From Shigella phage KNP5: a stretch of 64,000 nucleotides of DNA. Below are positions 5,418-59,974 of this stretch, in pieces. Every line of letters starts with the position of its first letter. Position 1 is the first letter of the stretch. Made by a program: the position numbers and the translations under genes. The notes below the pieces were generated by a model. That model ran no database searches and was not told the DNA's origin. It saw only the letters and a list, made by a program, of their open reading frames with translations. The stretch is from sequence record KX452698; one strand, written 5' to 3'.

Positions 5418-5938
5418 GTTGATCCCAGCTCCTTACTTTCAACGTTTTTAACTAATTTGACAGAAACTAATTCGGCATCTTGGGTAATCATTACCGGGCC
5501 TTCTTTATACTCTTCAAGATATTCTAGAGCTTTCTTTTTAGCTTCTTCCTTCGTATCAGTTTGAGCATAGATATAAAACATACAACCAGTAATACCTACT
5601 ACTTTCCACTTAATTTCTTTATCAGTTTTAATTTCAAATTTACTGACAGAATCATCTTTTTGAACTTCTTCGAAAAAAGAATATTCTAACATATAAGCAA
5701 TTGAAAATAACGGGCTAACTTTATAGGATTCGCCCATTACATCAACAGCTTTATACCAGCGGTCATCAATTTCGCGTTTAATGCTAATAACATTTTTCGC
5801 AGGATCTATTTTTACTTTAAATGAATTTTCCCCAATAAACTGAGCAATTCGTTTATTGGCCCCACAAGTTTCATTAAAAATATCTTTATATCCAGCTTTA
5901 AAACGATAAACCTTATCTTCTTCAAACCATTCGCTCAT
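5411..5938 (-). CDS. hypothetical protein, 175 aa (cd.3-like)
   Basis: ORF track; early promoter motif upstream at about 5964-5998. Confidence 0.5.
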   Translation of the reverse strand: MSEWFEEDKVYRFKAGYKDIFNETCGANKRIAQFIGENSFKVKIDPAKNVISIKREIDDRWYKAVDVMGESYKVSPLFSIAYMLEYSFFEEVQKDDSVSKFEIKTDKEIKWKVVGITGCMFYIYAQTDTKEEAKKKALEYLEEYKEGPVMITQDAELVSVKLVKNVESKELGSTC

Positions 5939-5963
5939 TTCAATTTCCTCATTTGTTTTGGTA

Positions 5964-5998
5964 GAGCTATAATATCACAACTCTACCATAAAGTAAAC
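5964..5998 (-). promoter_or_regulatory. T4-type early promoter
   Basis: Minus-strand GTTTAC and TATTATAG -10 flanked by inverted repeat. Confidence 0.5.
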
Positions 5999-6000
5999 CA

Positions 6001-6282
6001 TTAAATTGCTTTGAATTCTGATGTCTGTGATTCAAAGCGAATATCGCCTTTGATGACTAGCTCAGCATCAAGACCAAATACGACAATGATATGCGCGGAA
6101 CCCGGATACAGCGTAATTGCAATAGAATCCACCTGGTCTGGAAGCAAAGTGTTCAATACATGAGTCACTTGAGCATGAATTCGAAGCTCAGCTGCATTAT
6201 CAAGCTTTTCAAACATATTATTAGCGATAATTTGACTAAACACTACTTCTACGATTTTAGAATAAGTCGGAAACATATTCAC
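6001..6282 (-). CDS. hypothetical protein, 93 aa (cd.4-like)
   Basis: ORF track. Confidence 0.5.
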   Translation of the reverse strand: MNMFPTYSKIVEVVFSQIIANNMFEKLDNAAELRIHAQVTHVLNTLLPDQVDSIAITLYPGSAHIIVVFGLDAELVIKGDIRFESQTSEFKAI

Positions 6283-6479: not shown

Positions 6480-6667
6480 AAGTTTTCCATGGTAAAGGCA
6501 GTTTAGTTTTCTTTACTGTTAGTTCAACATCAGGATTCTTTTCTCTTAATTTAAGGCATTCCTCCCAAGCTCTGATTTCACTAGTGAATACACAAAATTG
6601 CCATTACTAGTACCAACTAAACCGCTATTTACAATAACAATAGACCAAGTTTCATGATGCCACGCCA

Positions 6668-7893
<1,226 letters not shown>

Positions 7894-15844: not shown

Positions 15845-16873
<1,029 letters not shown>

Positions 16874-16883
16874 GTTATTTTCC

Positions 16884-17126
16884 TTAAACAGACTTTTTCA
16901 CAATTTTCCAATCAGCTTTAAACTGATCGACGTCAGAATGGTAAATCCAGAATCCTGCGCTTTCTCCATCTTCATAAAGAGGACATCCATCACATTCATC
17001 TTCCCATCCCATATCACGCAAAAGACGTTCAGCTTTTTCAATGAGTTCAGAATCTTTACCGATGATATTAAAATACCATTTACCTCTAACTTCTGAATCT
17101 TTAATGCTCTGACGTTGTAATCTCAT
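16884..17126 (-). CDS. hypothetical protein, 80 aa (frd.2-like)
   Basis: ORF track; early promoter upstream at about 17148-17181. Confidence 0.5.
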   Translation of the reverse strand: MRLQRQSIKDSEVRGKWYFNIIGKDSELIEKAERLLRDMGWEDECDGCPLYEDGESAGFWIYHSDVDQFKADWKIVKKSV

Positions 17127-17147
17127 TTTATTCCCCTTAGTTGATAG

Positions 17148-17181
17148 GGTAATAGTATCACACTACTACCCTACTGTAAAC
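17148..17181 (-). promoter_or_regulatory. T4-type early promoter
   Basis: Minus-strand GTTTAC then GTGTGATACTATTA. Confidence 0.5.
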
Positions 17182-17561
17182 TACTTTTTGAATGTTTTTC
17201 GCAAAAGTTCAATGATTTCGTCGACGTTATTTTCGTCTACAATGCAGTGAATTTTTGTTACGCCAGAAACCTTGTCTTCGATTTCATCTTCTTCAGAAGT
17301 CGGTTCTTTATATTCACGAAAACAATGAAATTCATCTTCGCAAATTTCTAAAAGTCTATCTTTAAGGTAAAAATGCTTTCCATTTGCGCATTCAATGTGT
17401 TTTACTGCTTTATATCCATTAGCGACGGAAACTTCTTTAACTTCAAACCATCCGCCATTATCTCGAATAGCTTTAACTATTGATGAATTGGAACGTGGGC
17501 TATAATTAATAAATGTATCAATAAGTCTTGGAACAAGTTCATACTTTTTGCCAATATACAT
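17181..17561 (-). CDS. hypothetical protein, 126 aa (frd.3-like)
   Basis: ORF track. Confidence 0.5.
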   Translation of the reverse strand: MYIGKKYELVPRLIDTFINYSPRSNSSIVKAIRDNGGWFEVKEVSVANGYKAVKHIECANGKHFYLKDRLLEICEDEFHCFREYKEPTSEEDEIEDKVSGVTKIHCIVDENNVDEIIELLRKTFKK

Positions 17562-17836: not shown

Positions 17837-17875
17837 ATTATTTTCCTCTTTAATCATCAGCAGTATTGCCGATAG

Positions 17876-17909
17876 TTGTATAGTACCATAAAGCTTTATG
17901 CTTGTAAAC
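17876..17909 (-). promoter_or_regulatory. T4-type early promoter downstream of gene 32 terminator
   Basis: Minus-strand GTTTAC, spacer, TGGTACTATACAACTATC. Confidence 0.6.
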
Positions 17910-17940
17910 CGTTTTGTGAAAAAATTTTTGAAATAAAAAA
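17904..17940 (-). repeat. ~37 bp promoter-upstream repeat, copy 1
   Basis: GTAAACCGTTTTGTGAAAAAATTTTTGAAATAAAAAA nearly identical to 34583-34620 and partly to 38393-38425. Confidence 0.6.
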
Positions 17941-17959
17941 GGGGACCTCTAGGGTCCCC
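17931..17959 (-). terminator. rho-independent terminator after gene 32
   Basis: GGGGACC-CTAGA-GGTCCCC followed by TTTTTTATTT on minus strand. Confidence 0.65.
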
Positions 17960-17981
17960 AATTAATTAGTAATATAATCTA

Positions 17982-18890
17982 TTAAAGGTCATTCAAAAGG
18001 TCATCCAGGTCCGTGTCATCAGCACTAGATGAACTGCCAGAGCTTGAGCTCATAAAATCATCTTCAGTTTTTGTATTGAAGTCATCAACATTGAATGCAT
18101 CCAAATCATCAGCAACTTTATCAGCTTTCTTAGCGGCAGTCGCTGCGGCACCACCCATAGCAGCAGTTCCCATAACTTGACTGAACTTAGTGCTCAGTTC
18201 TTCAAACGATTTGAATTTATCTTTAGAAGTCATTTCAGAAAGGTCAACCATTTGTTCGAACAGTTCTTTCTGGAAAGATTCATCATCAATGTTTGGAATC
18301 GCAGATTGATTCAGGAATTTAGATTCGTCGTAGTTACTAAAACCAGAAACTTGTTTAACTTTCAGTACAAAGTTAGCACCTTCCCACGGACAAGTTACAT
18401 CAACCGGAGTTTCACCCATTTCAACATCAACTGCAATCATTGCATTGATTTTATCCCAGATTTTCTTACCGAAGCGGTATTTAAATACTTTACCTTCATT
18501 TTCTGGAGCAGCTGGGTCTTTTACTACAAGAATGTTAGCCCAGTAAGAAGTTTTACGTTTAACAAGACCGTATTCTTTATTGTCAGTATTGTACAAATCA
18601 TTTTTACTGATGTACTGACATACTGGACAAGAATCGTAATCACCGTGGGTAGATGAACAGTTTTCAATATACCATTTACCATTTTTCTTGAAACCGTGAT
18701 TTACAAGAATTGCGAATGGTGCTTGTTCATCATTTTTAGACGGAAGAAAACGAATTACTGCTTGACCATTACCCGCGTTATCGAGTTTCAGTTTCCACTC
18801 GCCTTTATCTTCAGAAGAAAAACCACCTTTATTTCCAGCCAGTTTAGCCATTTGTGCAGCGAGTTCAGCAGTAGATTTACGTTTAAACAT
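17982..18890 (-). CDS. 32: single-stranded DNA-binding protein gp32
   Basis: 302 aa; sequence matches T4 gp32 as recalled incl. zinc-binding [10 protein letters not shown] region and acidic C-terminal tail. Confidence 0.93.
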
Positions 18891-21221: not shown

Positions 21222-21255
21222 CTTATTATTGAAAACACAATAGGAGCCCGGGAGA

Positions 21256-24200
21256 ATGGCCGAGATTAAAAGAAAGTTCAGAGCAGAAGATGGTCTGGAC
21301 GCAGGTGGCGATAAAATAATCAACGTAGCTTTAGCTGATCGTGCCGTAGGAACTGACGGTGTTAACGTTGATTACCTAATTCAAGAAAACACAGTTCAAC
21401 AATATGATCCAACTCGTGGATATTTAAAAGATTTTGTAATCATTTATGATAACCGCTTTTGGGCTGCTATAAATGATATTCCAAAACCAGCGGGAGCTTT
21501 TAATAGCGTACGTTGGAGAGCATTACGTACTGATGCAAACTGGACAACTGTTTCGTCAGGACCTTATCAATTAAAGTCAGGTGAATCAATTTCAGTTAAT
21601 ACTGCAGCAGGAAATGATATCACATTTACTTTGCCAACTTCTCCAATTGATGGAGATACTATCGTTCTTCAAGATATTGGTGGAAAACCTGGAGTTAACC
21701 AAGTTTTAATTGTAGCTCCAGTGCAAAGTATTGTAAACTTTAGAGGCGAACAAGTACGATCAGTACTAATGACCCATCCAAAATCACAGATAGTTTTAAT
21801 TTTTAGTAATCGTCTGTGGCAAATGTATGTGGCTGATTATAGCAGAGAAGCGGTAGTTGTGACGCCAGCAAGTCTCTACCAGGCGCAGTCAAACGATTTT
21901 ATCGTGCGTAGATTTACTTCCGCTGCGCCTATTAATATTAAACTTCCGAGATTTGCTAATCATGGCGATATTATTAATTTCGTTGATTTAGATAAATTAA
22001 ATCCTCTTTATCATACAATTGTTACTACATATGATGAAACTACATCAGTACAAGAAGATGGAACTCATTCCATTGAAGGCCGTACATCTATTGACGGTTT
22101 CTTGATGTATGATGATAACGAAAAACTGTGGAGATTGTTTGACGGGGATAGTAAAGCACGTTTACGTATCATAACGACTAATTCAAATATTCGTCCAAAT
22201 GAAGAAGTTATGGTATTTGGTGCGAATAACGGAACAACTCAAACGATTGAGCTTCAGCTTCCGACCGATATTTCTGTTGGTGATACTGTTAAAATTTCCA
22301 TGAATTACATGAGAAAAGGGCAAACAGTTAAAATCAAAGCTGCTGGTGAAGATAAAATTGCTTCTTCAGTTCAATTGTTGCAATTCCCAAAACGTTCAGA
22401 ATATCCACCTGAAGCTGAATGGGTGACTGTTCAAGAATTAGTTTTTAACGGTGAAACTAATTATGTTCCAGTTTTACAGCTTGCTTATATAGAAGATTCT
22501 GACGGAAAATACTGGGTTGTACAGCAAAACGTTCCAACAGTTGAAAGAGTTGATTCTTTAAATGATTCTACTAGAGCAAGATTAGGCGTGATTGCTTTAG
22601 CTACACAAGCTCAAGCTAACGTCGATTTAGAAAATTCTCCACAAAAAGAATTAGCAATTACTCCAGAAACATTAGCTAACCGTACTGCTACAGAAACTCG
22701 TAGAGGTATCGCAAGAATAGCAACCACTGCTCAAGTGAATCAGGATACTACATTCTCTTTTGCTGACGATATTATCATCACTCCTAAAAAGCTGAATGAA
22801 AGAACTGCTACAGAAACTCGTAGAGGTGTTGCTGAAATTGCTACACAGCAAGAAACTAACGCAGGTACTGATGATACTGCAATCATCACTCCTAAAAAGC
22901 TTCAAGCTCGTCAGGGTTCTGAATCATTATCAGGTATTGTAACCTTTGTATCTACCGCAGGAGCTACTCCAGCTTCTAGTCGTGAATTAAATGGTACAAA
23001 CGTTTATAATAAAAACACTAATAATTTAGTTGTTTCGCCTAAAGCTCTGGATCAGTATAAAGCTACTCCAACACAACAAGGTGCAGTAATTTTAGCAGTT
23101 GAAAGTGAAGTAATTGCTGGACAAAGTCAAGAAGGATGGGCAAATGCGGTTGTAACGCCAGAAACGTTACATAAAAAGACATCAACTGATGCAAGAATTG
23201 GTTTAATTGAAATTGCTACGCAAAGTGAAGTTAATACAGGAACTGATTATACTCGCGCAGTCACTCCTAAAACTTTAAATGACCGTAAAGCAACTGAAAG
23301 TTTAAGTGGTATAGCTGAAATTGCTACACAAGTTGAATTCGACGCAGGCGTCGACGATACTCGTATCTCTACACCATTAAAAATTAAAACCAGATTTAAT
23401 AGTACTGATCGTACTTCTGTTGTTGCTCTATCTGGATTAGTTGAATCAGGAACTCTCTGGGACCATTATACCCTTAATATTCTTGAAGCAAATGAGACAC
23501 AGCGTGGTACACTTCGTGTGGCTACACAAGTTGAAGCTGCTGCAGGAACATTAGATAATGTTCTAATAACTCCTAAAAAGCTTTTAGGTACTAAATCTAC
23601 TGAAGCGCAAGAAGGCGTTATTAAAGTTGCAACTCAGGTTGAAACTGTAGCTGGAACGTCAGCAAATACTGCTGTATCTCCAAAAAATTTAAAATGGATT
23701 GTACAGAGTGAACCTACTTGGGCAGCAACTACTCTGGTAAGAGGTTTTGTTAAAACTTCATCCGGTTCAATTACATTCGTTGGTAATGATACCGTTGGTT
23801 CAACACAGTCATTAGAATTATACGAAAAAAATAGCTATGCAGTATCGCCATATGAATTAAACCGTGTATTAGCAAATTATTTGCCGTTAAAAGCAAAAGC
23901 TGCAGATAGTAATTTATTGGATGGTCTAGATTCATCCCAGTTCATTCGTAGGGATATTGCGCAGACGGTTAATGGTTCACTAACCTTAACACAACAAACG
24001 AATCTGAGTGCCCCTCTTGTATCATCTAGTACTGCTACGTTTGGTGGATCAGTTTCGGCAAATAGTACACTAACTATTTCTAATACTGATGGAACAGCAA
24101 CTCGTCTGATTTTTGAGAAAGGACCTCAAACTGGAACGAACCCGGCTCAAACGATGACAGTCAGCGTGTGGGGGAATCAATTTAGTGGGGAATCAAACAC

Positions 24201-25128
24201 AACACGTTCTACCGTATTTGAAGTTAGTGATGAAACATCTTATCACTTTTATTCTCAACGCGATAAAGATGGTAATATAGCATTTAGCATTAATGGTACT
24301 GTAATGCCAATAAATGTGAATGCTTTAGGTTCTTTGAACGCGAACGGCGTTGCAACATTCGGTAGTTCAGTTACTGCTAATGGCGAATTTATCAGTAAAT
24401 CGTCGAATGCTTTTAGAGCAATAAACGGTGATTATGGATTCTTTATTCGTAATGATGCTGCTAACACCTATTTTATGCTTACTGCATCGGGCGATCAGAC
24501 TGGTGGATTTAATGGATTACGTCCATTAACTATTAATAATGCATCTGGTCAAGTAACGATTGGTGAAAGCTTAATCATTGCCAAAGGTGCTACTATAAAT
24601 TCAGGCGGTTTAACTGTTAACTCGAGAATTCGTTCTCAAGGTGTTAAAACATCTGATTTATATACCCGTGCGCCGACATCTGATACTGTAGGATTCTGGT
24701 CAATCGATATTAATGATTCAGCCACTTATAACCAGTTCCCGGGTTATTTTAAAATGGTTGAAAAAACTAATGAAGTTACTGGACTTCCATACTTAGAACG
24801 TGGCGAAGAAGTTAAATCTCCTGGTACATTGACTCAGTTTGGTAACACACTCGATTCGCTTTACCAAGATTGGATTACTTATCCAACGACCCCAGAAGCA
24901 CGTACCACTCGCTGGACGCGTACATGGCAGAAAACCAAAAACTCTTGGTCAAGTTTTGTTCAGGTATTTGATGGAGGTAACCCTCCACAACCATCTGATA
25001 TCGGTGCTTTACCATCTGATAATGCTATAATGGGGAATCTTACTATTCGTGATTTCTTACGAATTGGTAATGTTCGCATTATTCCTGACCCAGTGAATAA
25101 AACGGTTAAATTTGAATGGGTTGAATAA
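21256..25128 (+). CDS. 34: long tail fibre proximal subunit gp34
   Basis: 1290 aa; repeated ATQxE..GT...ITPKKL tail-fibre repeats; late promoter TATAAATA upstream. Confidence 0.92.
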   Translation: MAEIKRKFRAEDGLDAGGDKIINVALADRAVGTDGVNVDYLIQENTVQQYDPTRGYLKDFVIIYDNRFWAAINDIPKPAGAFNSVRWRALRTDANWTTVSSGPYQLKSGESISVNTAAGNDITFTLPTSPIDGDTIVLQDIGGKPGVNQVLIVAPVQSIVNFRGEQVRSVLMTHPKSQIVLIFSNRLWQMYVADYSREAVVVTPASLYQAQSNDFIVRRFTSAAPINIKLPRFANHGDIINFVDLDKLNPLYHTIVTTYDETTSVQEDGTHSIEGRTSIDGFLMYDDNEKLWRLFDGDSKARLRIITTNSNIRPNEEVMVFGANNGTTQTIELQLPTDISVGDTVKISMNYMRKGQTVKIKAAGEDKIASSVQLLQFPKRSEYPPEAEWVTVQELVFNGETNYVPVLQLAYIEDSDGKYWVVQQNVPTVERVDSLNDSTRARLGVIALATQAQANVDLENSPQKELAITPETLANRTATETRRGIARIATTAQVNQDTTFSFADDIIITPKKLNERTATETRRGVAEIATQQETNAGTDDTAIITPKKLQARQGSESLSGIVTFVSTAGATPASSRELNGTNVYNKNTNNLVVSPKALDQYKATPTQQGAVILAVESEVIAGQSQEGWANAVVTPETLHKKTSTDARIGLIEIATQSEVNTGTDYTRAVTPKTLNDRKATESLSGIAEIATQVEFDAGVDDTRISTPLKIKTRFNSTDRTSVVALSGLVESGTLWDHYTLNILEANETQRGTLRVATQVEAAAGTLDNVLITPKKLLGTKSTEAQEGVIKVATQVETVAGTSANTAVSPKNLKWIVQSEPTWAATTLVRGFVKTSSGSITFVGNDTVGSTQSLELYEKNSYAVSPYELNRVLANYLPLKAKAADSNLLDGLDSSQFIRRDIAQTVNGSLTLTQQTNLSAPLVSSSTATFGGSVSANSTLTISNTDGTATRLIFEKGPQTGTNPAQTMTVSVWGNQFSGESNTTRSTVFEVSDETSYHFYSQRDKDGNIAFSINGTVMPINVNALGSLNANGVATFGSSVTANGEFISKSSNAFRAINGDYGFFIRNDAANTYFMLTASGDQTGGFNGLRPLTINNASGQVTIGESLIIAKGATINSGGLTVNSRIRSQGVKTSDLYTRAPTSDTVGFWSIDINDSATYNQFPGYFKMVEKTNEVTGLPYLERGEEVKSPGTLTQFGNTLDSLYQDWITYPTTPEARTTRWTRTWQKTKNSWSSFVQVFDGGNPPQPSDIGALPSDNAIMGNLTIRDFLRIGNVRIIPDPVNKTVKFEWVE
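22684..22827 (+). repeat. direct DNA repeat inside gene 34 (24 bp identical, two copies 120 bp apart)
   Basis: ACTGCTACAGAAACTCGTAGAGGT at 22684-22707 and 22804-22827, encoding TATETRRG of the tail-fibre repeat units. Confidence 0.7.
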
Positions 25129-26979: not shown

Positions 26980-31102
<4,123 letters not shown>

Positions 31103-31789: not shown

Positions 31790-32062
31790 TTATTTGTTTG
31801 TATACATCTCTAGATATCGATATACACCCTCAAAACCCTCGTTGAATTCGTCGATGAGGGTTTTCTTATCTTCTTGAGTTAATTCAGAAACAATTTTACG
31901 GAATGAATTCTGATTCAACTTTCTACCTTCATGCGTTACTCCAATCTCATTCAGAAATGCAATAAAATTAGCACGATTCTCAACAATATCTTCTCGGGAA
32001 AATTTAATCAAAATAGACGCAACAGTAATAATTTCACGAACTGTATCAATATTTTTATTCAT
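31790..32062 (-). CDS. asiA: anti-sigma70 factor AsiA
   Basis: 90 aa; sequence MNKNIDTVREIITVASILIKFSREDIVENRANFIAFLNEIG as recalled for T4 AsiA. Confidence 0.92.
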   Translation of the reverse strand: MNKNIDTVREIITVASILIKFSREDIVENRANFIAFLNEIGVTHEGRKLNQNSFRKIVSELTQEDKKTLIDEFNEGFEGVYRYLEMYTNK

Positions 32063-32074
32063 TAACTATACCAC

Positions 32075-32227
32075 TCAATTAGTTGACTTTGCTATAATAT
32101 CATCAGACGTTTGATTTGTAAACTGGTCTGTGTTATTTTCTTCAAAAATTTTTTCTACGAATTCCTTGAACGACTCACGTTCCTGAGCTACATTATGCTC
32201 GATTACTTTTTCAAGATTATGACTCAT
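32075..32227 (-). CDS. hypothetical acidic protein, about 50 aa
   Basis: Manual translation (below track size cutoff); ATGA overlap with arn stop. Confidence 0.35.
   Translation of the reverse strand: MSHNLEKVIEHNVAQERESFKEFVEKIFEENNTDQFTNQTSDDIIAKSTN
32091..32123 (-). promoter_or_regulatory. T4-type early promoter upstream of asiA
   Basis: Minus-strand GTTTAC and GATATTATAG -10. Confidence 0.5.
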
Positions 32228-32502
32228 TCGAAATAATCTTCAATTTCATAATCAAGAACATAAATCATTATAGTTTTTAATACATCATCAATACTTTTTC
32301 CTGGAGCTGGAATTACGTAAAAATATCCCGCCTTTGAATTATCTTTATAAGTTCCAACCAAGAAATCATTATTCTCAAGATGCAGTTCTTCAACTAATTA
32401 ATTAACAATTGAGTGGTATAAATTTGGTAGTAACTTGTATAGCTTTTCTAGAATATCAATTTTGATTGTGTATTGAACCACAGACTGAGAATCAATAATC
32501 AT
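32224..32502 (-). pseudogene. arn: arn (anti-restriction nuclease, McrBC inhibitor) interrupted by in-frame TAA
   Basis: 93-codon frame of Arn size (92 aa) and position; codon 35 is TAA at about 32398-32400; both halves in same frame; no ORF of 60 aa or more in track across 32063-32585. Confidence 0.5.
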
Positions 32503-32585
32503 AGACCTTCCCCTTATGTTTCTGTTTGCGATTAGATTCTTTAAACGCTTTCTTCTTATCTTTATGGACAGAAGCTTTATTAAAA

Positions 32586-33881: not shown

Positions 33882-34517
33882 TCACAGTTCAGATGCTACG
33901 GTGATTACTGCTTCAATGTTTTCTGCCGAGCGTTTAATGTCAAGATACACATTACCATTTTTAGCGATTTTACATGACATTCCGATATCAGTAAATTTCT
34001 GAATATGATGTTCCATCATTTTGTATCCAAAAATTCGCATATTTCCATTGTTGTTAATTTCAAAATTGCGAATTCCATGAGTGCGTTTTTCTAAAATAGC
34101 AAGATAGTTACTGCGGTAAGTTTCAACCTTTTTAAGAACAAATCCATTTTCATCTAAAAGTTTTAACATGAAGTCTTTATCTTCTTCCATATCGGAAGTA
34201 ATCTCACGAGCTTTACGAGTTGCTCGTTTTTTCAGCAGTTCAGGAGCATTTTCCTGCGCATATAAAGTTGCTGCATTTGAAATAATATCCTGAGCTTCAC
34301 CTGTAATGATTAATCCATCACCAGATTTCTCCACCAGGCCTTTTTTAATCAATACCCCAATATTACTATTAACTACTGCGTTACCTAAATCTGGATGCAC
34401 CTCACGAACTTCTGCAGCTGTAATGAAATCTTTCTTAGCAATGGTAATTAAAATCGCAGCAGTTTTTTCATTCAGAACATCGTTAGAAGCTTTGATGATG
34501 TAAGTTACTTTAGACAT
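33882..34517 (-). CDS. motA: middle transcription activator MotA
   Basis: 211 aa; matches T4 MotA size and sequence as recalled; early promoter upstream. Confidence 0.92.
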   Translation of the reverse strand: MSKVTYIIKASNDVLNEKTAAILITIAKKDFITAAEVREVHPDLGNAVVNSNIGVLIKKGLVEKSGDGLIITGEAQDIISNAATLYAQENAPELLKKRATRKAREITSDMEEDKDFMLKLLDENGFVLKKVETYRSNYLAILEKRTHGIRNFEINNNGNMRIFGYKMMEHHIQKFTDIGMSCKIAKNGNVYLDIKRSAENIEAVITVASEL

Positions 34518-39273: not shown

Positions 39274-39468
39274 TTATTTGAATTGTGCAATTCTTTTTTC
39301 TAAACAGTCTGCGTAAGATTTCATTGAGATGAACTGTGAAAGCAGTAATTCTTGCTCAACTTCATTAACTGATAGAAACTTTGTGCTTTCTAAAAATTTG
39401 CTCAGTGCATTAATTTTGAGCATTAATTGATCGTATTCTTCTTTTACTCGTGCTTGATAACCTAACAT
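39274..39468 (-). CDS. hypothetical protein, 64 aa
   Basis: ORF track; flanked by GC hairpins. Confidence 0.5.
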   Translation of the reverse strand: MLGYQARVKEEYDQLMLKINALSKFLESTKFLSVNEVEQELLLSQFISMKSYADCLEKRIAQFK

Positions 39469-46979: not shown

Positions 46980-47519
46980 TTAATTCAAAATAGCTACCAC
47001 TGCACTACGAGGTACTACACTAAAATCACCTGCATGAACAACGTTCAGAAGTTCAACACCATCTTCAATCCACTGGTCTGTTACCCAACCACAGACCGAA
47101 ATAAATGGGGTCTTGATAGCTACAGCACGAGTTAGAAGGTCAGTAGGATCGCATTCTTGGAAGAGGATAAGCTCTGCTTCAAAGACTATAGTTTTAATTA
47201 CTTCATCATTATCTAAGCGTTGTGCTCGAATCACATAAGCTTTATTCTTATCATACCAATTACTTTTTGAAAAACTTTTAACCACAAACTCGCCTTCACC
47301 CAAAACACTGGTCAATGCTTTATAACCCAAACTTAGTTCAGTAGTTTTAATTTCAGTTTCAACCAGTTTGTAGGTTTTGCCGATTTCAATAGCGGTAGTC
47401 ATAGTAGGTTCCTTAATTTCCAGTGGTTTAACAGGGCATACATAAGTGCTTACAACATCAAAATCAATCAGTTTAGCTACCGGATTTGGTGTGTATTCAG
47501 GATTATAATTAAATTTCAT
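46980..47519 (-). CDS. hypothetical protein, 179 aa, paralog of 46406..46903
   Basis: Shared C-terminal motif TDQW(I/V)EDGV(E/K)L.N(A/V)V. Confidence 0.5.
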   Translation of the reverse strand: MKFNYNPEYTPNPVAKLIDFDVVSTYVCPVKPLEIKEPTMTTAIEIGKTYKLVETEIKTTELSLGYKALTSVLGEGEFVVKSFSKSNWYDKNKAYVIRAQRLDNDEVIKTIVFEAELILFQECDPTDLLTRAVAIKTPFISVCGWVTDQWIEDGVELLNVVHAGDFSVVPRSAVVAILN

Positions 47520-47521
47520 AA

Positions 47522-48022
47522 TTATCTCATTTCAATAAAATCTATAAGTTCAGCATGGGATTTACGGAACATTACTTGATGTCCGCCAATGATAACTTGG
47601 TCATCTGGCACTTCGTATACAGCAAGATAAAATCCTTTAGAAGATAATTCTTCACGCTCTTCTCGTGTGAACCATCTCATCATATCATATTCACTAGCGA
47701 AAGCAAAATGATAAAGAGCTATAAACCATCCTGGAATATAGTGATCTACGCCTACATAATCTTTCTTGAACTTAGTATTAATTACTGTATTAGCGTTTTT
47801 AACTAATAGTTTATCTTCGTGTGGTAAAGGAATTCTTTTATTATTATCGCTATGATGCATAAAATTAGGTCTGTCATAACCTACGTGTAATAACCACTCT
47901 TCGCTCCATGAATCTATTATACTCCTGTATGGCGTTATTTGAACACAAAGATTTCGACGTATTGTTATAGCATCTTCATAATTAAGAATACTAAAAGATG
48001 ATTCAACACGATAAATTTTCAT
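47522..48022 (-). CDS. hypothetical protein, about 166 aa (start trimmed)
   Basis: Track start 48061 lies inside promoter -10; internal ATG with GAGGA SD. Confidence 0.5.
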   Translation of the reverse strand: MKIYRVESSFSILNYEDAITIRRNLCVQITPYRSIIDSWSEEWLLHVGYDRPNFMHHSDNNKRIPLPHEDKLLVKNANTVINTKFKKDYVGVDHYIPGWFIALYHFAFASEYDMMRWFTREEREELSSKGFYLAVYEVPDDQVIIGGHQVMFRKSHAELIDFIEMR

Positions 48023-58547: not shown

Positions 58548-59974
58548 TAAAATTTTAATTCATTTGCCAAAGCATCTAACTGAGCTCGAGCAGATTCGTT
58601 TCTTTGATAGCGATTCTGCTCAGCCTGAATCTGCTGTGAACCTGCTACTTCGTTCACTTCAGTTGGAGTAGAATCTTGTTCAATTTCTACCCATTTCTGA
58701 TTTCCTTTTTGAACACCCATCAAAAACTTATTCCATTTATTCTTATCACCGTATCGTGATTTGATTTGCTTAATGAGTTGTTGTTCAGCAGCTGCTAGCT
58801 CCTCGGTTTCAATGACCGCAAGCATAAAATCAGCTGTTGCTGGAAGACCGGCAGATTCTGCAATATCGCTCATGTTAACATCAGAAGAATCCCAAGCTTG
58901 CTTACCAACCTGTGCTGCGGTCCAAAGAACAGTTTCGGTTTCAACAGCCAGAGCGCGCAATTCCTCTGCAATAGCTTTAACAGTCGTGTAACTATTTTCT
59001 GAATAAACTCTAATGCGGCAAGATTTACAAATACCCAGATAGTCAACAATAATGATTGTTGGAACAAAATTCTTCTTGAGCTTCAATTCGTTCAAAAGCG
59101 ACCGAAATGTATTAGCGTCTGCTCCACCAGTAGGATATTGCTTAACGATTAAACGACCGAGAGTAGATTTCTCACGCCATTTTTCCATTTTTCCTTTATA
59201 CTCAGCGTAAGAAATATGCCCGTCATCAATGTCATCAAGAGAAACATCAAGCATATTAGCGTCAATACGCTTAGCACAAACTTCTTCTGCCATTTCCATG
59301 GAAATGTAAAGAACATTATGTCCGAGCTGCAAATAATCTGCTGCCAATGAACACAGACCTAATGACTTACCGACGTTAACACCAGCCATTAAAACGTTCA
59401 GTGTTCCAGTTTCAGCTCCGCCTTTAGTAATTTTATTTAGAATTTTGAGTTTAAATGGAACCTTACGAGCTTTATTCATATAAGATAGCCAACGTGCTTC
59501 GTAGTCATCCATCCAATCATGACCAACGTAGCTATCAAATGAAATTGATAATGCTTGGCGCATGATGTCAGGAATAGCACCTACATCTGGCATTTTCTTA
59601 TTTCGTTTTTCCGGAGGAAGCTCAGCATTAGTTTGAATTTCAATTATTTTAGACGTAGCATTAAACATCGCCCTTTGCTGAACATATTTTTCTGTTTCTT
59701 TTACTAACCAGCTGTGGTCTTCTGGAGAATCGGCTAGTTTCGAAATAAGTGTTTTTACACCAGAATATTCTGTTTCAGTAAATGAACTATTTTCTAATGC
59801 AACATTTAACGCATTAATAGATGGAACGCTATGGTACTCATTAACATGAGATTTAATTAATTTGAATGTATTTTTAGCTGGACCACTTTCAAAATATTCT
59901 GAATCCATATATGGCCAAACTTTTGAAAAATAAGCTTGATCAAATATGAGATGAGAAAGAATAATTTCTACCAC
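58547..59974 (-). CDS. 41: replicative DNA helicase gp41 (DnaB family)
   Basis: 475 aa; Walker A GVNVGKS; size and position. Confidence 0.95.
   Translation of the reverse strand: MVEIILSHLIFDQAYFSKVWPYMDSEYFESGPAKNTFKLIKSHVNEYHSVPSINALNVALENSSFTETEYSGVKTLISKLADSPEDHSWLVKETEKYVQQRAMFNATSKIIEIQTNAELPPEKRNKKMPDVGAIPDIMRQALSISFDSYVGHDWMDDYEARWLSYMNKARKVPFKLKILNKITKGGAETGTLNVLMAGVNVGKSLGLCSLAADYLQLGHNVLYISMEMAEEVCAKRIDANMLDVSLDDIDDGHISYAEYKGKMEKWREKSTLGRLIVKQYPTGGADANTFRSLLNELKLKKNFVPTIIIVDYLGICKSCRIRVYSENSYTTVKAIAEELRALAVETETVLWTAAQVGKQAWDSSDVNMSDIAESAGLPATADFMLAVIETEELAAAEQQLIKQIKSRYGDKNKWNKFLMGVQKGNQKWVEIEQDSTPTEVNEVAGSQQIQAEQNRYQRNESARAQLDALANELKF

Follow-up and report, generated by a model that had tools for sequence, protein, structure and literature searches.

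Phages whose hydroxymethylcytosine is glucosylated are not exposed to the McrBC restriction system. The Arn protein of phage T4, a DNA mimic, inhibits McrBC restriction of T4gt, a non-glucosylating mutant, and additionally binds H-NS (PMC12707154); these activities are known from work on T4 only. According to a preprint, T4-Arn, which has Asn at residue 70, blocks the PUA-Cal-HAD defence while T2-Arn and the N70S mutant do not, and the region around residue 70 lies at the interface with a defence protein (PMC12871103). Moreover, the PARIS system restricts T4, and Arn was proposed, not shown, to be its trigger (PMC9122126; PMC10802264); T4 escapers could not be isolated in the PARIS study (PMC10802264).

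The arn locus of Shigella phage KNP5 (KX452698; RefSeq NC_055713.1) was analysed within a stretch of 64,000 nucleotides of this genome, hereafter called the window, to which all positions refer if not stated differently. Arn is encoded there on the minus strand in a frame that is interrupted by an ochre codon. The frame and its parts were delimited as follows:

32224..32502, minus strand: arn frame of 93 codons, in which both TAA (internal) and TGA (terminal) are counted
32398..32502, minus strand: ORF of the N-terminal arn fragment, 34 codons and TAA (ORF list; RefSeq YP_010278377.1)
32224..32397, minus strand: C-terminal part of arn, 57 codons and TGA in the same frame, equal to Arn residues 36-92
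32224..32361, minus strand: 45-aa ORF with an in-frame TTG start at Arn codon 48 (ORF list; RefSeq YP_010278376.1)

Translation of the minus strand from 32502 to 32224 yields MIIDSQSVVQYTIKIDILEKLYKLLPNLYHSIVN, a stop, LVEELHLENNDFLVGTYKDNSKAGYFYVIPAPGKSIDDVLKTIMIYVLDYEIEDYFE and the terminal stop. The internal stop is codon 35 and occupies 32400..32398 on the minus strand; the pieces on either side of it share one frame, and the codons add up as 34 + TAA + 57 + TGA = 93. The mutated base is position 32400, which is A on the plus strand and T on the coding strand, while the relatives carry GAA (Glu35) at this codon, and the sequence around the stop reads GTT AAT TAA TTA GTT. An earlier reading made from the sequence only had reported a 93-codon frame on the minus strand with TAA at codon 35 (32398-32400), and the translation agrees with it. 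With regard to the sizes of the pieces, the 34 aa of the upstream piece and the common frame were borne out, while the downstream piece, given there as 56 aa, consists of 57 codons. The same reading was right that no ORF of at least 60 aa is present in 32063-32585: in the six-frame ORF list this is true for both strands, and the longest ORF is the 50-aa asiA.1.

The normal arn ATG at 32502 is preceded by the purine-rich sequence AAGGGGAAGG, and the 34-aa peptide is the sole product expected from this start. Within the C-terminal part (32224..32397, minus strand) there is no ATG or GTG start that gives the whole piece. The 45-aa ORF is preceded by ATCTTGAGAATAATGATTTC, and no obvious Shine-Dalgarno match was found in the 20 nt upstream of its TTG. 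Judged by these sequence features, the 45-aa CDS is probably a product of the gene caller and not a real protein, and it is unlikely to be expressed.

Both ORFs are present in RefSeq, where YP_010278377.1 (34 aa) and YP_010278376.1 (45 aa) were found by sequence look-up to match them exactly and where both are named 'inhibitor of MrcBC restriction'. The split itself is already known in the sense that it is public in RefSeq as two CDSs. Whereas that annotation has two genes, the locus is here read as one disrupted arn; the two CDSs should be merged into one disrupted arn, or be corrected if the base is wrong. Annotation around arn is also uneven in other records. LH2 annotates only a 45-aa CDS at arn (1501-1779 of LH2 segment L006) although the arn ORF is intact. 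As this CDS is identical to the C-terminal fragment of KNP5, LH2 was considered as a second case of a broken arn and was rejected, since its locus translates to an intact 92-aa ORF and the short CDS is an annotation artefact. In several records around arn, with Sfk20, KIT06, HY03 and BF15 among the artefact cases, Arn is called 'baseplate wedge tail fiber connector'.

For the assignment to the Arn family, the frame was compared with T4 Arn and with the family profile. The frame repaired with Glu at codon 35 matched T4 Arn (PDB 3WX4) over residues 1-92 with an E-value of 3.8e-52 and reached 169 bits with the Pfam profile PF22134 (DM_Arn), for which the cut-off is 26. Each of the two pieces also passes the PF22134 cut-off by itself. 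Of the 79 profile positions, 1-26 are matched by the 34-aa piece and 28-79, with 110 bits, by the 57-aa piece. Since the halves fill positions 1-26 and 28-79, the stop takes up one position of a single domain. The sequence-only reading had proposed alignment of both halves to T4 Arn as a check, with non-homology to a single Arn-like protein as the contrary outcome; the halves are collinear and form one Arn domain. Its central interpretation, an arn gene split by an in-frame ochre codon, is thereby upheld.

The position in the genome leads to the same assignment. The neighbouring features are:

31790..32062, minus strand: asiA (anti-sigma-70 factor), 90 aa, intact (ORF list); downstream anchor; ESh16, LH2 and Sfk20 have an annotated 'anti-sigma factor' in this position
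32075..32227, minus strand: asiA.1, 50 aa (ORF list); a separate CDS in annotated relatives
32094..32122, minus strand: promoter-like site, TTTACA, 17 nt and TG-TATTAT, inside asiA.1 and upstream of asiA; 10/12 consensus matches with an extended -10 TG
33882..34517, minus strand: motA (middle-promoter activator), 211 aa, intact (ORF list); upstream anchor, annotated correspondingly in ESh16 and LH2

Five small ORFs lie between arn and motA, as annotated in ESh16 and LH2. The earlier placement of arn between asiA and motA is correct, as the ORF order matches the annotated order in ESh16, LH2 and Sfk20. The terminal TGA of arn overlaps the ATG of asiA.1 (ATGA at 32227..32224), and because of this overlap translation of asiA.1 may be coupled to that of arn, in which case it may be weakened by the premature stop. 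asiA has a promoter-like site of its own, which would shield it if the arn stop were polar. The site is no more than a lead, as the promoter consensus scan counted as many promoter-like sites in the region as expected by chance. At asiA codon 15 (window position 32020), the Escherichia phage KNP1 has CCG (Pro) and both the window and Sfk20 have GCG (Ala). Pro15 is thus a non-synonymous change private to KNP1, in a record that is flagged UNVERIFIED.

KNP1 (KX452694.1; India) is the closest genome, 99.9% identical to KNP5 over 24 kb and about 99.9% identical over about 62 kb of the window. In arn, 278 of the 279 nt are identical between the two phages. The sole difference is at nt 103, which is G (GAA) in KNP1 and T (TAA) in KNP5, and the KNP1 gene is an intact 92-aa ORF with GAA at codon 35. 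As the outgroup Sfk20 has the KNP1 base at arn nt 103, the T is derived in KNP5. In order to search for the T allele elsewhere, a 55-mer centred on the mutated base was used, in which each 28-base megablast seed word must contain that base. The T version gave no match in 50,697 phage records, while the G version matched 300 of these records, so that low-complexity masking is ruled out as the cause of the missing T matches. With N at the site, a pattern search additionally recovered four contigs from IMG/VR and five true arn contigs from metagenomes, that is nine arn copies, with one 5,436-bp contig present in both sets. All nine have G at the site (GAA) and an intact 92-aa ORF. Five other matches to this pattern, two in metagenomes and three in the genome_contigs set, were rejected as arn because they are chance matches to unrelated sequence.

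At the protein level, a search of 5.8 billion clustered proteins recovered only ten Arn clusters. Five of them are 92 aa long and a sixth, divergent and full-length, has 91 aa; of the shorter ones, one is an N-terminal variant of 86 aa, one is a fragment from the end of a contig, and two come from read assemblies and are heavily altered. Glu35 is invariant among the cluster representatives, and the cluster of the 34-aa protein has one member. The TAA allele is private to KNP5 among the sequences tested. In all other sequences examined, Arn is intact and residue 35 is always Glu, so that arn nulls are rare in nature.

Several further sequences from these searches resemble truncated Arn proteins. 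A 57-aa 'partial' Arn that starts at codon 36 (P0026) was considered as a second nonsense allele at codon 35 and rejected, as both contigs that carry it merely begin there. A T4-type arn is present on two short contigs (L020:1-176 and L021:1-174), from the Enterococcus faecalis assembly GCA_046614045.1 and from Logan run SRR27475848. These two contigs begin at arn nt 104 and 106, just past nt 103 that is mutated in KNP5; the proximity may be coincidental, or a contaminating T4 stock may have supplied both with the same junction or variant. In two truncated Arn-like sequences from Logan (P0027 and P0028), nearly all departures from the consensus are replacements of the types P-to-L, H-to-Y, A-to-V and T-to-I. 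These correspond to C-to-T changes in the DNA, as expected of bisulfite-converted or deaminated T4 spike-in reads and not of real variants.

The sequence context of the substitution was inspected as well. At window positions 32391-32408 (minus strand), the quasi-palindrome TAATGAATTA became the perfect 10-bp palindrome TAATTAATTA through the G-to-T change. A PacI site (TTAATTAA) and clustered stops covering all three frames arose with it. A templated mutation at the quasi-palindrome is implausible, because the loop of the hairpin would form at the centre, and this is where the base changed.

The reliability of the deposited sequence was assessed from its differences to KNP1 and from the integrity of its other genes. 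Over about 62 kb, 33 substitutions separate KNP5 from KNP1, which is about 0.05% of the aligned window positions, and the only gap, a short one, coincides with a run of N in KNP1; frameshifts are absent. Synonymous changes make up about two-thirds of the substitutions, and many of them lie in tight clusters, with patches at 5759-6196, 23127-23328, 39307-39372 and 59036-59093, one of them in the long tail-fibre gene (21244-25128). Clustered and mostly synonymous differences of this kind look like a biological pattern and resemble recombination patches, and recombination between co-circulating T-even phages is expected to leave such a pattern. Some short stretches of KNP1 do not align to the window (5596-5737, 16753-17498, 29237-29714, 30781-30920 and 47186-47730). 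Two of them are located just upstream of the holin gene, where the relatives have distal tail-fibre and receptor-recognition genes, and the non-aligning stretches may be related to the Shigella and Escherichia host labels of KNP5 and KNP1.

Among the 155 Sfk20 ORFs that match the window at 80% identity or more, a stop breaks the own frame of a real gene only in the case of arn. The other six flagged matches are five antisense ORFs and gp32, in which stops occur only where the alignment passes the normal end of the gene. This argues against a generally error-prone window, though a single base cannot be validated in this way. In the case of gp32, the match of the 311-aa Sfk20 SSB to window positions 17853-18890 runs across the gp32 end (…DDLLNDL followed by two stops) with a 35-residue gap; this suggests that the C-terminal end of gp32 was deleted or fused in the Sfk20 record. 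The KNP5 record has a length of 193,624 bp and is thus about 25 kb longer than the 165-170 kb of related Tequatrovirus genomes. This excess suggests that the assembly was not closely curated; the extra sequence of about 25 kb may be assembled terminal redundancy. No long internal repeat was found in the window.

The consequence of the stop for the protein was deduced from an Arn of 99% identity, for which the AF2 model (mean pLDDT 88.8) has strands at residues 11-14, 47-51 and 60-65 and helices at residues 16-24, 26-43, 71-84 and 87-91. Codon 35 falls inside helix 2 (residues 26-43) of this model. The 34-aa product would consist of the first strand, the first helix and one half of the second helix; according to the model it would be devoid of two of the three strands and of both C-terminal helices, and it would also be devoid of the region around residue 70. 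Since these strands and helices would be missing, the peptide should be unable to form the DNA-mimic fold, and the model points to a null allele of arn with no functional product.

A loss of this gene may well be inexpensive for the phage. As the glucosyltransferase genes of KNP5 are located outside the window, the capacity for glucosylation was deduced from KNP1, which encodes a full-length DNA alpha-glucosyltransferase (PF11440, 780 bits; 6586-7785 of KNP1 segment L018). A beta-glucosyltransferase was searched for in KNP1 with an approximate T4 sequence as query, and no match was obtained with it; DNA glucosylation in this lineage may follow T2 and T6 rather than T4. Because the lineage has an alpha-glucosyltransferase and a T2-type Ser70 in Arn, loss of Arn would be cheap on most hosts, and in KNP5 it appears to be tolerated and neutral.

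The observations on the locus were weighed against four explanations. The possibility that arn is still functional through ochre suppression, readthrough or recoding, with full-length Arn made at a useful level, is very improbable. As the halves share one frame, readthrough alone would give the 92-aa protein. T-even phages carry tRNA genes that are able to mutate to suppressors, and the tRNA-Gln (UUG) of KNP1 is one base away from an ochre anticodon. However, no tRNA gene is present in the 64-kb window, and an ochre suppressor with anticodon UUA is not among the ten tRNAs of KNP1 (Arg-UCU, Asn-GUU, Tyr-GUA, Met-CAU, Thr-UGU, Ser-UGA, Pro-UGG, Gly-UCC, Leu-UAA and Gln-UUG), which serve as proxy for the KNP5 tRNA cluster outside the window. 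The suppressor tRNA that the sequence-only reading had suggested looking for was thus not found in the window or in this about 99.9% identical genome. Furthermore, the stop is absent from all relatives, so that it is not a conserved recoding signal and readthrough at this site is not programmed. It is followed by U, and UAAU is the most efficient termination signal of E. coli. The sequence TTAATTAATTAG closes all three frames within 12 nt at the stop, and a frameshift or short hop gains nothing for this reason. The only in-frame start-like codons downstream of the stop are CTG (codon 40), TTG (codon 48) and ATG (codon 79), with no obvious Shine-Dalgarno match upstream of any of them; frameshifting, hopping and reinitiation were consequently rejected as means of rescue. 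Of the three options that had been raised from the sequence, a nonsense allele, a sequencing error and readthrough or suppression, the first two both stand, and the third is disfavoured by the absence of the stop from relatives, by the UAA-U context and by the lack of a suppressor tRNA in the window and in KNP1.

It is conceivable, with a probability well short of even, that the phage truly has GAA and an intact arn and that the deposited T is a wrong base call or consensus error. Such an error would account for a T allele that occurs in no other sequence and for a lone substitution at an otherwise invariant codon, and limited curation is hinted at by the unusual length of the 193,624-bp record. 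The similarly named sister record KNP1, also from India, is flagged UNVERIFIED. On the other hand, there is no homopolymer at the site and no indel but a substitution; the 155 ORF comparisons revealed no other broken real gene, and the differences to KNP1 are without frameshifts and mostly synonymous. Another explanation holds that the ochre codon is real and was selected: on the Shigella isolation host, intact Arn would have done harm, for instance as the trigger of a PARIS-like abortive-infection system that guards restriction systems and senses DNA-mimic anti-restriction proteins, and KNP5 would have become better able to plate by losing it. This is improbable. The restriction of T4 by PARIS with Arn as the proposed trigger is in its favour, and so are the clean early nonsense change, a typical form of escape mutants, and the interaction of Arn-type mimics with several defence systems (PMC12871103). 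Nevertheless, a role of Arn as trigger of any system is a proposal only, the PARIS study obtained no T4 escapers, and an allele that is unique among hundreds of genomes gives no sign of recurrent selection. On balance, a real, private and effectively neutral nonsense mutation in KNP5 arn is favoured, though by no means strongly. By this mechanism, the arn gene of KNP5, a Tequatrovirus of the pSs-1 group, would have gained one derived G-to-T transversion that converted GAA to TAA and Glu35 to ochre; ribosomes would start at the ATG at 32502 and stop after 34 residues, and the phage would be Arn-null. Two circumstances would make the loss tolerable: Arn is an accessory backup whose only known importance against McrBC is with unglucosylated hydroxymethylcytosine, and the lineage encodes an alpha-glucosyltransferase. 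The likeliest origin would be a neutral mutation that was fixed in isolation or during propagation on a permissive host. Against a neutral nonsense mutation, this substitution stands alone and differs in this from the clustered ones that separate the two phages, arn nulls are rare, and the record exceeds related genomes by about 25 kb.

The finding, a well-known T-even gene in a disrupted copy, is ordinary and reveals no new mechanism, and its significance is small and chiefly that of an annotation note. If the allele is real, KNP5 and KNP1 constitute a natural near-isogenic pair of arn-minus and arn-plus phages, with tail-fibre regions that do not align. Such a pair could be used for the roles of Arn in wild T-even phages, namely in McrBC restriction of non-glucosylated DNA, in H-NS binding and in possible sensing of the PARIS type. 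An adaptive loss, if true, would be the first natural evidence of Arn as a defence trigger.

In comparison with the known systems, the KNP5 frame resembles T4 Arn in its length of 92 codons, in its collinearity over residues 1-92 and in its place in the genome, between asiA.1/asiA and the block from arn.1 to motA. It differs from T4 Arn in codon 35, which is TAA and not GAA, so that only a 34-aa peptide is expected, and in substitutions that include F13I, I49V, L55N, N70S and H83L. With Ser70, the frame is like T2-type Arn and most Tequatrovirus Arn proteins, and KNP5 Arn, even if repaired, is predicted to be without PUA-Cal-HAD activity; the T2-type proteins are intact, whereas that of KNP5 is truncated. 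Genes that depend on programmed readthrough or on a suppressor have a conserved stop, a leaky context and a cognate suppressor tRNA, and KNP5 arn has none of these, with KNP1 as the proxy for the last. Bypass of the T4 gene 60 type is not indicated either, as the arn halves are in the same frame with no coding gap between them. Nonsense mutants of T4 have a null phenotype unless a suppressor is present. The KNP5 allele is like the classical T4 amber and ochre mutants in being a single-base change to a chain-terminating codon. Unlike them, it is spontaneous, was found in an environmental isolate and affects a non-essential gene, and it is therefore not conditional-lethal. By sequence and synteny the KNP5 frame belongs to the Arn family; its ORF is not intact, and it is thus a disrupted member of this family, a pseudogene or null allele.
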